A stretch of 64,000 bases of DNA from a virus (Duplodnaviria; Caudoviricetes). The stretch is from IMG/VR virus record IMGVR_UViG_3300012979_001162, positions 32,001 through 96,000 of that record; one strand, given 5' to 3'. Positions within the stretch are counted from its first letter, which is position 1. Each line of letters opens with the position of its first letter. Positions 21,814 to 25,822 of this stretch are shown here, one piece after another. Position numbers and translations under genes: made by a program. Below the pieces are notes generated by a model. That model had not been told where the DNA came from. It saw only the letters and a program-made list of their open reading frames with translations, and searched no databases.

Positions 21814-22905
21814 CTATATTATTTGATTATTCTGCAAATTGGATTGGTTATCATTTAAAGAGTTGTACCATTCTATAAAATCATCTATTTGCTTTTTTAC
21901 TTTTTCTGACTTCACAGGGTTAATCCACGGTATTCTGTATATTACAAATCCATTTGCGGTTAATCTTTTATCTCGTAGTGTATCATGTTCTTTTCTCTCT
22001 TCGTATTGATGCTGCTTCCCATCAATCTCAAGATCAATATATCCATCGATTAAAAAATCTAAAAAATAGCATCCTTGCTCATCAATGCCTATATCTGTTT
22101 TCTTGAGAGTATATTCTGGTTCATATTGTAGTTTATTATTTGTTAACACTCTCTCCCAAAATAACTCGGCATAACTACGAATCTTTCTTGTTTTCCATCC
22201 AATGTGTTTGCCCTCGTCAATCAATCTTTTCTGAACTTCTGTTCCGATTTTAGATCTTTTGGCATGAGAGACTTCGGATGTAGTAACATAAGATTCACCG
22301 AATTCATTTCTTAAGTCATTTATGGTTTTATCGTGTTGCTTAAGGTGGCTAGCATTAATGTTTGCTAGTCTGACATTACAATAAGGGCAAACAACAAAGT
22401 CAACACCTTCAACTTTGTCTAATGTGTAATGTTTTAAATTTCTATACGTTATCACACCTTGCACGTATAAATCTTTTGTACCGTTCGCATATTCATTGAA
22501 ATTTATACGCACATCACATTCATTTTGCTGTTTTTCAGTTTGTTGAGCATATCTTTCCCTCAAGGAATTTGATATTTTAATTTTACTTTCGGAAGTATGT
22601 ATGCGTCCTTTGTTGTTGTGTTTTGCAGCACAACTACTGCCGCAAAATCGTTTTCTTTGATAATCTGCAAAGCTATTTTTTGCACTAATTGGAATTAATT
22701 TTCCACACTCTTCACAACACTTCGTTACAATTTCTCTTTTATGGTTACATTGCTTGGCAACACCAATCGCTCGTTTCGGCATGTCATGCTCAAAGCCACA
22801 TATAGTACACTTAACATGATACATTTTATGACCGTCATTCGATTTATAGCCGCAAAGATACAATACCTTATGAATGCCTATAACCGTTCCTATGATATCA
22901 TCCAT
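21814..22905 (-). CDS. Putative homing endonuclease, Vsr/DUF559-like core with Zn fingers
   Basis: Start MDDIIG after GGAGGG; LDFL...LEIDGKQH...HDTLRD...GFVIYRIPW. Confidence 0.75.
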   Translation of the reverse strand: MDDIIGTVIGIHKVLYLCGYKSNDGHKMYHVKCTICGFEHDMPKRAIGVAKQCNHKREIVTKCCEECGKLIPISAKNSFADYQRKRFCGSSCAAKHNNKGRIHTSESKIKISNSLRERYAQQTEKQQNECDVRINFNEYANGTKDLYVQGVITYRNLKHYTLDKVEGVDFVVCPYCNVRLANINASHLKQHDKTINDLRNEFGESYVTTSEVSHAKRSKIGTEVQKRLIDEGKHIGWKTRKIRSYAELFWERVLTNNKLQYEPEYTLKKTDIGIDEQGCYFLDFLIDGYIDLEIDGKQHQYEERKEHDTLRDKRLTANGFVIYRIPWINPVKSEKVKKQIDDFIEWYNSLNDNQSNLQNNQII

Positions 22906-22933
22906 ATATTCCCTCCAATCATTTGTTTTGTTA

Positions 22934-23007
22934 TGGTACCAGATGTTAGTACTGCCCTGATCCTCGAAACCCCAAATTTCGCATGCTTCTTTCACACCCC
23001 ATCTGAT
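22934..23007 (-). tRNA. tRNA-Pro(UGG)-like with atypical T arm
   Basis: ATCAGATG/CATCTGGT acceptor, ACCA end, CGAAA-TTTGGGG-TTTCG anticodon arm; T loop reads GGCAGTA. Confidence 0.5.
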
Positions 23008-23060
23008 ATTTTGTAAGTTCTTAATTATAGGGAAAGAACTGTGACTGTAAGAAAACCATT

Positions 23061-23152
23061 TGGCTGGGAAGATGGGATTTGAACCCATGTAGGGAACTTC
23101 TTCCTTTGTGCCAGAGTCAAAGTCTGGTGCCTTACCGCTTGGCGACTTCCCA
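23061..23152 (-). tRNA. tRNA-Gln(UUG) with long variable arm
   Basis: TGGGAAG/CTTCCCA-GCCA, CCAGA-CTTTGAC-TCTGG, ATGGG-TTCAAAT-CCCAT; 22-nt variable region. Confidence 0.85.
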
Positions 23153-23240
23153 ATATCGAAGGGCGATTTTTAACTCTTTCGAGAGGCCAATCGCCGTAGC
23201 CTAGCAAATCGTATATACGATCAGCCGATTCATTATAAGA

Positions 23241-23336
23241 TGGCGGAAGACTTCGGACTTGAACCGAAACGCCGAATGACTTCGACTACTCATTGATTAG
23301 CAATCAACTGCCTTACCAAATTAGGCTTAGCCTTCC
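23241..23336 (-). tRNA. tRNA-Ser(GCU)
   Basis: GGAAGGC/GTCTTCC-GCCA, GTTGA-TTGCTAA-TCAAT, long variable arm, TTCAAGT T loop. Confidence 0.9.
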
Positions 23337-23357
23337 ATAAGTACTCCAACAACCGCT

Positions 23358-23879
23358 ATTGATAAGTAGCGATACGGTGATTTACCCTGATCCGCAACAG
23401 CAACACTACACAACCCGACCTTTTATGTGTCGTATATCGGGTAACGACTATCTCTGTTGTTGGCTTTATTGCACCATCCGTGAAAACGAATGGAGGAACC
23501 TTTACCACGACTAGTGGGTAGGCATTGTGGCTGGACTTACATCTCGGTGAGAAGGCCCTTCCACCCCAATCCGATAGGCTGTTCAACTCTCTCCATTTAC
23601 TACAGCTTCTTACAACGCTACTAAATACTTCGTTTGCAACCTCCATAATTAGCACTTCGTAGCACCTATCTCGCATATAAACCCTTGATTCGCTTATAAA
23701 GCAGGTTCAAGAAACCCTAACGAAATCGCACCGCAGGACGTAATACGAAATCTCAACTCTTCCCACACAAGGATGGGCGAGCAATGACTACTATCCCGAC
23801 ATACGAACCAGCTTTACACTTATTCGTGTCCGTTTTTGTTGTTTGCATAACCGCTCAGCACGGCATTGTGCTTATCAAT
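23358..23879 (-). ncRNA. Candidate large structured ncRNA (about 520 nt)
   Basis: 9-bp terminal helix ATTGATAAG/CTTATCAAT, many internal hairpins, H-type pseudoknot; no credible ORF; strand inferred from flanking tRNAs. Confidence 0.6.
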
Positions 23880-23889
23880 GTCTTGGCAC

Positions 23890-24420
23890 ATTTGAATAGT
23901 AGTAGTGTGAGAGAAAATTATGGGGAACATCCCCATACGAACGTAAAATTCGCATCCCAAGGTACTTCGTGTTGACGAAGCAACTACTAGCCTTGGAGAC
24001 GCTACGGCTCACTCTAAAAATCTCGTTTATTTCACAAGTTGTCATCTTGTTATTTCCACTACCAACGACAAAGATTTCTGCCGTTTCACAATTCCACCCT
24101 GGGACACTTACGCCGTAGCAGAGGTGCGGGTGGTCAATTTTTGACAACTTAATGTTGTCTACCAGTTGCATTTAGCAACGCAGGGGGTTTCGCCTATTTC
24201 GTTTTTCATAGCAAGCCTACATACGACCTCATCTTGCATTTCCTACCGGACTTCGGTTTACTGCAGACACCGAAGTGGACTCGTATGCTTCCAATGGCTT
24301 TCTTTCCAGCCTAGACCAAGTTCATCTTACACTTGGAGAATTTGTCATCATTTTATCCAACTTTTGATGATGACCCAAAAGCTCGTTGCGTTCATCTATG
24401 GGTTAGACTACTTGTCGCTA
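23890..24420 (-). ncRNA. Candidate large structured ncRNA (about 530 nt)
   Basis: Dense nested helices (GCTACGGC/GCCGTAGC, ACTTCGGT/ACCGAAGT, GTCATCAT/ATGATGAC, CCAAGG/CCTTGG); ends approximate. Confidence 0.6.
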
Positions 24421-24472
24421 TAACAATACCCTCCTCATAAGTATCTTATAGAAGCAACCCCAAATGGCGCTT

Positions 24473-24548
24473 TGGTGCAGAAGGTAAGATTCAAACTTAC
24501 GAATACTAGTTTTTTATCACTAGTGCTTTCCAACTAAGCTACTTCTGC
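24473..24548 (-). tRNA. tRNA-like element with 8-nt anticodon loop (GATAAAAA); possibly Ile-derived or pseudo-tRNA
   Basis: GCAGAAG/CTTCTGC-ACCA, D arm, CTAGT/ACTAG, GTAAG-TTTGAAT-CTTAC. Confidence 0.6.
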
Positions 24549-24857
24549 GCATGCCCCACACTTAACGTTAACAGGCTCCTACTGACCAGTGGGCTACGGC
24601 TATGACATTACTTCATTCTGCTTCGAAGGGGCATTTGTTATCCGCATTTCCTTACGGGCAAGACCGGCTTCAAACAAATGAGCTCTCAACTTCTCAAGAG
24701 TTTCTTTTAAATAATGGCTCGGCTCGTCACCCATTCCGTATGGGTCGCTTTATATGCCATTATGCCTTCTTACTTGCGCTCCATTTTCGTACATCGCTAT
24801 TCGACACGGTTGATACTCTTTTTTCATCAGTGGGATCACAACTTAACTAATCTGGTT

Positions 24858-24940
24858 TGGCAGGGGAGCGGCGACTCGAACACCGATAGCCTTTCGGCAC
24901 AGTTTTGGAGACTGCTGTCTTACCATTAGACGACTCCCCT
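24858..24940 (-). tRNA. tRNA-Trp(CCA) with extra variable stem-loop
   Basis: AGGGGAG/CTCCCCT-GCCA, GCAGT-CTCCAAA-ACTGT, variable GCC-GAAA-GGC, CGGTG-TTCGAGT-CGCCG. Confidence 0.85.
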
Positions 24941-25020
24941 ATGTAAGAGACTTCTAAAACCTACAAGGAAACTCCGTCTCGATGTTTTTTATACAGGAGG
25001 TACTCGTATGATGTAACGAG

Positions 25021-25097
25021 TGGTGATCACACTGGCATTCGAAGCCAGACTGGATGCGTTCTAAGCACATTGCCTCTACCTGTTGGGCTATGCGGTC
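25021..25097 (-). tRNA. tRNA-Leu(UAG) with short variable loop
   Basis: GACCGCA/TGTGATC-ACCA, ATGTG-CTTAGAA-CGCAT, 5-nt variable loop, CTGGC-TTCGAAT-GCCAG. Confidence 0.8.
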
Positions 25098-25108
25098 ATA
25101 ATTGGCAC

Positions 25109-25822
25109 TCAAACTTGAATGCCATATACAGAAAACCACGTCTGATGTGATTTTCTATGTTTTGTTGATGGAGGTTCTTTGAGCATAGCAGAGATAAGCT
25201 CTTTTGTTTTGTTTACTCCGTACTCTCGTACGGATTTGTTGATAGTATTTATGCCTAATCCCAATTTTTGGGCCCACTGTTGTCCTGTTAATACTTCACT
25301 CTCAACTTCAATCCAATTGACCTTGCCTGCTCTTCTAGAATTTTCCTCCAACGGAATCCATCGACAGTTACTGGGGGAATAGTCTACGTCGGGATCAATT
25401 CTATCTATGGTTAGAAATTCTTCGTACCCATTGTTCAAAGCCCACTTTTCAAATTTACCAGGGTTATCCAACCACTCTTGACACACTTTAATACCCTTTT
25501 CCCCATACCACCTATAGTTTTTGTCATTTGGATTATAGCATCGAACAATGATGCCTCTGAAGATCTTACCAAGACGACTATTCTCCCATTTATGCCTATT
25601 AATAATGTACTCTCCGTTAGTTCTTAAGTGGGTGCATTTATTTGATAGTTTGCTTGGTGCAGAAACCCCACTATATGTAAATTCTGTTTCAAAACCACAT
25701 TCGTTGCATACACATTTATAAATTCGATGTCTGTACTTATCGGTTTTATCTGTTATATCTGCTATTGTATAGATTCCGTGCACTTCTCCAATGTGAGATC
25801 TTGGATCAAATTTTTCTACCAT
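25109..25822 (-). CDS. HNH-type homing endonuclease
   Basis: RCYNP...YG.KGIKVC.EW...LTIDRID...YSPSNCRW. Confidence 0.85.
   Translation of the reverse strand: MVEKFDPRSHIGEVHGIYTIADITDKTDKYRHRIYKCVCNECGFETEFTYSGVSAPSKLSNKCTHLRTNGEYIINRHKWENSRLGKIFRGIIVRCYNPNDKNYRWYGEKGIKVCQEWLDNPGKFEKWALNNGYEEFLTIDRIDPDVDYSPSNCRWIPLEENSRRAGKVNWIEVESEVLTGQQWAQKLGLGINTINKSVREYGVNKTKELISAMLKEPPSTKHRKSHQTWFSVYGIQV

Follow-up and report, generated by a model that had tools for sequence, protein, structure and literature searches.

The tRNA cluster of phage T4 encodes two small stable non-tRNA RNAs, species 1 and species 2 (rnaC and rnaD; 139 and 119 nt), which lie a few bases from a tRNA and adjoin tRNA-Arg and a homing-endonuclease gene. 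GOLLD and ROOL are structured non-coding RNAs, often found near tRNAs in phages and prophages of Firmicutes (PMC5737381), and each has one architecture of about 580-800 nt. The drum, skipping-rope and DUF3800-I classes (Weinberg et al. 2017) are compact and highly conserved, and end in intrinsic terminators (PMC5737381). Bacterial Y RNAs (YrlA) have ends that pair in a conserved stem.

The locus described here lies in a 64,000-nt stretch of DNA (the window), which corresponds to positions 32001-96000 of an IMG/VR record of a gut phage (162,648 bp, 95% complete). The window encodes DNA polymerase III alpha, an NAD-dependent ligase, a RecJ-like exonuclease, NrdD and an endolysin. An earlier note had proposed that the segment 23358-23879 is a single ornate RNA of about 520 nt inside a tRNA operon, closed by a terminal helix and either akin to GOLLD or ROOL or a new class. 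We compared the segment with approximately 60 related phage and metagenome loci (designated by L and a number), relatives having been fetched via DNA polymerase III alpha and further loci by pattern scans. The comparison bore out a conserved, structured non-coding RNA in a phage tRNA operon, but not the single RNA, as relatives shuffle, delete and multiply its parts independently. Instead, our results show that the segment consists of structured RNA modules, each conserved on its own, and belongs to a 1.1-kb run on the tRNA sense strand that includes further such modules upstream (Table 1); what it holds is several new small RNA families rather than a new giant RNA. The location inside the operon was as described, with the segment occupying the 3' half of a 1139-nt gap and every gene and tRNA around it on the minus strand, and the raised GC content was also confirmed (0.43-0.47 in the segment versus 0.31-0.40 in the coding flanks).

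Table 1. Positions of the tRNA array, its flanking genes and its RNA modules, in window coordinates.
Feature	Position	Strand	Remarks
HNH homing endonuclease gene	25109-25822	-	upstream of tRNA/RNA array
tRNA-Leu	25021-25097	-	
tRNA-Trp(CCA)	24858-24940	-	83 nt total, long extra arm
tRNA-like element	24476-24548	-	Rfam tRNA model, 56 bits
Gap without tRNA call	23337-24475, 1139 nt	-	between tRNA-like element and tRNA-Ser
M4 closed domain	23787-23903	-	8-bp stem, 23896-23903 with 23787-23794
M3 closed domain	23573-23670	-	stem GATAGG/CCTATC; holds three helices from the earlier note
M2	23474-23524	-	hairpins 23505-23517 and 23474-23493, just 5' of R1
R1	23346-23467, 122 nt	-	covariance model 101.5 bits, E 1e-17; uncatalogued family
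R1 P1 closing stem, 8 bp	23456-23463 with 23346-23353	-	100% of cells paired
R1 P2 hairpin	23429-23448 (23444-23448 with 23429-23433)	-	both-sided changes in 6/7 aligned pairs
R1 pseudoknot 1	P2 loop 23437-23442 with 23413-23418	-	H-type, crosses conserved A-rich strand
R1 optional P3 hairpin and pseudoknot 2	23373-23400 (23392-23396 with 23373-23377)	-	compensatory variants
R1 P4 hairpin	23354-23371	-	stacked directly on P1; conserved 8-nt loop 23359-23366
tRNA-Ser(GCU)	23241-23336	-	ARAGORN and Rfam tRNA model; 5' end 10 nt past R1 3' end
tRNA-Gln(UUG)	23061-23152	-	92 nt total, long extra arm
DUF559-bearing frame	21814-23088	-	downstream of array; annotated start overlaps tRNA-Gln

A consensus promoter (12/12 match) is located at 25890-25862 on the same (minus) strand as the tRNAs. 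The counterparts of tRNA-Gln(UUG) and tRNA-Trp(CCA) in L013 and L002 are only 74-76 nt long. The element at 24476-24548 has a tRNA shape with intact stems and an anticodon loop of 8 nt, and received no ARAGORN call in the window; ARAGORN assigned a 2-base anticodon to its counterpart at L013:18337-18409, and a 4-base anticodon (taaa) to the L067 counterpart, which lies just after R1. The 312-nt spacer between tRNA-Trp and this element (24549-24860, minus strand) is conserved, with identities of 96% over 24548-24671 in L081, 89% in L067 and 70% in L013, and probably represents at least one further RNA module. Elsewhere in L013, whose polymerase is 94% identical, the DNA polymerase III alpha gene (L013:10001-14371) has a length of 4371 nt, compared to 3168 nt in the window, which suggests an intein or intron insertion.

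Relatives of the phage have syntenic tRNA arrays in which the gap lengths differ and only blocks of the gap are held in common. The best-conserved of these blocks is R1, the last 122 nt before tRNA-Ser. Like rnaC and rnaD of T4, R1 lies within a few bases of a tRNA, and endonuclease-type genes flank the window's array, just as T4 has segB inside its tRNA cluster. In both rnaC and R1 the closing stem abuts a 3' hairpin. However, this hairpin is a canonical T arm in rnaC, whereas that of R1 has an 8-nt non-T loop and the body of R1 is pseudoknotted; in addition, the T4 RNAs sit after tRNA-Arg, whereas R1 sits before a tRNA. On the tRNA region of T4 the R1 model scored no higher than 6.2 bits, indicating no similarity to rnaC or rnaD. 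With GOLLD and ROOL, the segment shares a location near tRNAs in a phage of Firmicutes, but such a location does not define these families, since it is common to many unrelated RNAs. Their single multi-junction architecture of 580-800 nt is absent here: homologues of the segment keep separate modules of 50-225 nt, individually closed and varying in order and number. The proposed kinship with GOLLD or ROOL also found no support in the covariance models for these families (RF01998 and RF03087), which gave no match on 22500-25600 or in the related loci, nor in a search of the window and approximately 20 related loci with lax filters, even at E<=10. The drum, skipping-rope and DUF3800-I RNAs share neighborhoods with R1, but R1 differs from them in its fold and in ending 7-16 nt before a tRNA. 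None of the three is present in the window (Rfam 15, 22500-25600), and drum (RF02958) had no match there at E<=10. R1 resembles the Y RNAs in that its ends pair in a conserved stem, but the stem is only 8 bp long, and there was no YrlA match at R1.

Searches against known families were consistent with the novelty of these folds. Rfam 15, applied at the gathering score to the window and at E<=10 to 22500-25600, returned tRNAs only; within the segment there was no match to GOLLD, ROOL, OLE, raiA, HEARO, tmRNA, RNase P, an intron or a known ribozyme, in agreement with the previous reading that the sequence carries no tmRNA, RNase P or group I signature. Neither ARAGORN nor Rfam called a tRNA or tmRNA inside 23337-24475. 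Among the approximately 20 related loci, Rfam 15 matches were limited to tRNAs, one tmRNA, skipping-rope, DUF3800-I and a weak drum, none of them overlapping R1, M3 or M4. Blastn searches of the 1139-nt gap and of one R1 copy against 50,697 GenBank phages found no match, and a pattern scan of IMG/VR for M4 recovered only its own record. Neither Rfam 15, nor the GenBank phages, nor any paper in the literature searched contains a description of R1, M3 or M4, although a catalogue of structured RNAs from IMG/VR (PMC10690425), with 8,495 unnamed candidates, may include one or more of these modules. The folds are new, but the kind of object, a stable structured RNA without known function in a phage tRNA cluster, is old.

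Pattern scans built from the 122-nt block, run over IMG/VR, metagenomes and species genomes, recovered 35 distinct R1 homologues of 96-223 nt, and all copies scored 72-123 bits with the R1 covariance model. The window's copy displays both hallmarks of the family, namely a stack of P1 and P4 with a conserved loop, and a pseudoknot formed by the P2 loop across an A-rich strand. The strand between P1 and P2 is purine-rich and conserved, and an A-rich linker follows pseudoknot 1. In the alignment to the model, 93.7% of cells pair, compared to 28-56% in slid controls. Covariation among homologues, which the earlier note had named as a check on its proposal, was found for both R1 and M3; in R1, the score observed for P2 was reached by none of 500 shuffles. 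The H-type pseudoknot that had been placed at 23413-23448 is real, with strong comparative support across the homologues: at least 12 clearly different complementary helix sequences occur, and at least four Watson-Crick pairs form in 89% of copies with their own partner, versus 30% with a mismatched partner. The helix of pseudoknot 2 recurs with compensatory variants in L076, L031, L054 and L017, and the whole P3/pseudoknot 2 domain is missing from short forms of R1 (96-98 nt).

In P1, every one-sided change gives a G-U pair in the covariance-model alignment, and in P4 the fourth pair of the stem is U-A, U-G or C-G, while the loop is nearly invariant in all copies. The invariance of P1 and P4 is in part an artefact of ascertainment, because the 3' strand of P1 and a large part of P4 were prescribed in the patterns used for retrieval. 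For this reason we ran an additional scan in which P1 was left free. It revealed a swap of C-G to G-C at the first P1 pair in L103, and the loss of three P1 pairs from both strands together in L104. The many G-U pairs of R1 would be C-A mismatches on the opposite strand, indicating that the fold belongs to the tRNA sense strand and, therefore, to an RNA.

R1 occurs exactly once in each of approximately 50 loci, and exactly once in the window's 162.6-kb genome. A scan of 185,579 species genomes produced three matches, all in contigs of Clostridia MAGs, and R1 matches in general were confined to gut and Clostridia-associated contigs. The module is absent from the record behind L004, which is 99% complete and has a DNA polymerase III alpha 75% identical to that of the window, and we therefore regard R1 as accessory; four relatives that are more distant and less complete lack it as well. 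A tRNA begins 7-16 nt past P1 in 24 of the 35 distinct copies, and its identity may be Ser, Gln, Thr, Glu, Lys, Tyr, Gly, Pro, or an odd tRNA with a 4-base anticodon. The remaining 11 have no tRNA immediately downstream, and in L031 an 80-codon gene, preceded by a ribosome-binding site, comes after R1. The base preceding the downstream tRNA was U in the six R1 loci read, as is typical of ordinary RNase P leaders. Within the array, R1 is positioned as a tRNA would be. The previous tRNA is always at least 63 nt upstream of R1, and other modules frequently occupy the interval. In the tRNA array of L039 R1 is immediately preceded by a phage tmRNA (L039:4240-4692, minus strand; 90.7 bits), which is a separate gene. 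In L052, approximately 1.3 kb upstream of R1, ARAGORN called a tRNA with anticodon CUA (labelled Pyl), possibly an amber suppressor.

On the R1 strand, no promoter-like site was found directly upstream of R1 in the window, L046 or L017, and no terminator-like site upstream of R1 in L046 or L017. The window's only terminator-like site upstream of R1 on this strand is a hairpin at 23919-23937, between M5 and M4. This hairpin is conserved, and in L072, L002 and L074 non-U sequence comes after it.

Both hairpins of M2 are kept in L013 and L074, each with compensatory changes, and a similar hairpin pair follows M4. M3 contains a conserved, asymmetric internal loop of approximately 20 nt; in eight homologues, 96.7% of cells are paired, 7 of 15 pairs show both-sided changes, and the covariation score was reached in 0/500 shuffles. 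The 5' signature of M3 is present three to four times each in L079 and L108-L111. M4 is known from three sequences: its blocks are 84-91% identical in L072 and L060, with one compensatory change, in an inner hairpin. Further 5', the block 23949-24179 (minus strand) is 85% identical to L072.

The internal helices previously proposed for the segment fared unequally in the comparison. GATAGG/CCTATC and CCATTCGT/ACGGATGG are present and show compensatory changes in relatives. The sequences of GCTAC/GTAGC also exist, but the alignment pairs GCTAC with GTAG at 23593-23603, a different partner from the one suggested. GCTGT/ACAGC is likewise present, but overlaps the GCTAC pairing and is interrupted in some relatives, and CTTGA/TCAAG, although present, lies in sequence for which no homologue was found.

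The order of the modules differs among phages. L072 has the order M5-M4-M2-R1, in which M4 occurs without M3, and L013 and L074 have M3-M2-R1. Phages of the L046 type have R1 alone between tRNAs, in the order tRNA, 63-nt hairpin spacer, R1, tRNA. In L054, skipping-rope and DUF3800-I immediately precede R1, and in L060 a diverged drum (30.8 bits versus a threshold of 43 bits) is inserted in or next to the M4 homologue. Judging from these sequence comparisons, the gap is a mosaic of modules that are individually folded and independently shuffled, and not one architecture.

This mosaic leaves a very slim probability that the segment belongs to one large ornate RNA of at least approximately 520 nt, akin to GOLLD or ROOL and closed by pairing of 23358-23366 with 23871-23879. 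The minimum-free-energy fold does include the terminal helix, and the adjacent 5' half of the gap (23880-24475, minus strand, 'RNA B' of the earlier note) folds better than shuffles, with a z of -2.9. The segment as a whole, however, folds on the minus strand at -149.4 kcal/mol, versus -145.4 +/- 6.3 kcal/mol for shuffles (z -0.63), and on the plus strand its z is -0.41. The complementary 9-bp arms exist as reported, but as a closing helix they are unsupported and at chance level: after shuffling, 25% of 522-nt sequences and 84% of 1139-nt gaps contain a perfect 9-bp complement. Complementarity of the arms is kept through a G-U pair in L060, which has both R1 and M4, but is broken by an A-A mismatch in L072. 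The 3' arm (23358-23366) corresponds to the P4 loop of R1, and the 5' arm (23871-23879) lies within a local hairpin of M4 (23864-23880). Because each arm thus sits in a conserved local structure of its own, the arms of the supposed terminal helix are better described as the R1 P4 loop and the M4 hairpin loop. A loop-loop contact between them is possible, but nothing requires it. The P4 loop is conserved also in many phages without M4, and M4 itself crosses the proposed boundary, extending 24 nt past the end of the segment. More improbable still is the explanation that the blocks act at the level of DNA, as sites of recombination or for homing endonucleases, or are remnants in decay, or that part of the segment is a gene. 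Endonuclease genes of the homing type (25109-25822 and 21814-23088) flank the array, and the P1 sequence is nearly invariant, but strand-specific G-U pairs and compensatory changes preserve the helices as RNA. With respect to coding, the earlier observation that the segment lacks an ORF with a ribosome-binding site has to be amended, as a 106-codon ATG frame runs through 23356-23676 (minus strand) with AAGGG five bases upstream. This frame has no Pfam match and is not kept in relatives, where ORFs over the homologous RNA of 34 loci are short and in inconsistent frames; these results rule it out as a gene, and support the original judgment that the segment is non-coding. A reading of the conserved 5' block as a tmRNA tag was also rejected, as the frames differ and, in sequences read by eye, lack a tag-like C-terminus.

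As for what R1 does, we consider the chances evenly balanced that the modules are stable small RNAs cut from a tRNA precursor, with R1 acting in trans, in the manner of T4 species 1 and 2. The modules would be transcribed together with the tRNAs from the promoter at 25890-25862, and RNase P, by cutting where the following tRNA begins, would release R1 at its 3' end. Processing of this kind is a plausible route of release, given that the tRNA starts 10 nt after R1. Once free, R1 would endure as a tRNA-sized, compact and stable RNA that may bind a factor of the host or the phage and so act in trans, as an accessory function. Even among phages whose polymerase identity is <50%, the loops and joining strands of R1 are invariant, which points to a putative macromolecular partner that is itself conserved. 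It is unlikely that R1, perhaps with other modules, is instead a cis-acting leader of a tRNA sub-operon with a role in folding, processing, stability or antitermination. The tight, constant spacing of 7-16 nt between R1 and the next tRNA could be expected of such a leader, as could the position of R1 before a gene with a ribosome-binding site in L031, and the lack of a separate promoter directly upstream of R1. However, a genome carries a single R1 among roughly 5-25 tRNAs, the identity of the tRNA that follows is not fixed, and 7-16 nt is too short for an expression platform. RNase P cleavage would, moreover, separate R1 from its supposed target, and the high conservation of its loops and joining strands in distant phages suggests a partner in trans. 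It is very improbable that R1 is a self-cleaving ribozyme that helps to cut the polycistronic precursor, even though it is compact and pseudoknotted, has conserved unpaired nucleotides and is placed at a processing junction. Its hairpin-loop pseudoknot with an A-rich linker recalls pistol-like architectures. Yet R1 matches no Rfam ribozyme model, and the variable tail of 7-16 nt and the U before the tRNA fit ordinary RNase P processing. [quoted passage not shown]

It is conceivable, though decidedly unlikely, that the P1/P4 and P2/pseudoknot stacks of R1 mimic the two arms of a tRNA, making R1 a decoy or inhibitor of a host factor that recognizes tRNA shape. Such a factor could be a defence nuclease that cleaves tRNAs, or one with a role in processing or translation, and R1 would then be an RNA-based counter-defence carried in tRNA arrays. 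Among the encoded proteins, a 531-aa DUF2828/DUF7788 'RNA-binding protein' (phrog_850), which is presumably TROVE-like, as in Ro-type proteins, co-occurs with a 249-aa protein in 10 loci beside R1-bearing arrays. The pair lies approximately 1-2 kb upstream of the array in L046, L051, L002 and related loci. The DUF2828/DUF7788 protein is absent from three of five near-complete R1-bearing genomes, including that of the window, and is therefore ruled out as an obligatory partner of R1; the 249-aa protein is also absent from the window's genome. Clustering of the gene neighborhoods around R1 recovered clade synteny only (membrane protein, endolysin).

Large gut phages of Clostridia carry tRNA arrays with long gaps that have hitherto been read as single giant RNAs. 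In the locus described here, at least two of the modules, R1 and M3, are RNA families supported by covariation and absent from Rfam 15 and from GenBank phages. With its double pseudoknot, invariant loops, single copy per phage and accessory distribution, R1 fits the profile expected of an RNA with a specific binding partner. What the non-tRNA RNAs in phage tRNA clusters do is a question that dates from the description of T4 species 1 and 2, and R1 provides a defined object of approximately 120 nt with which to ask it.
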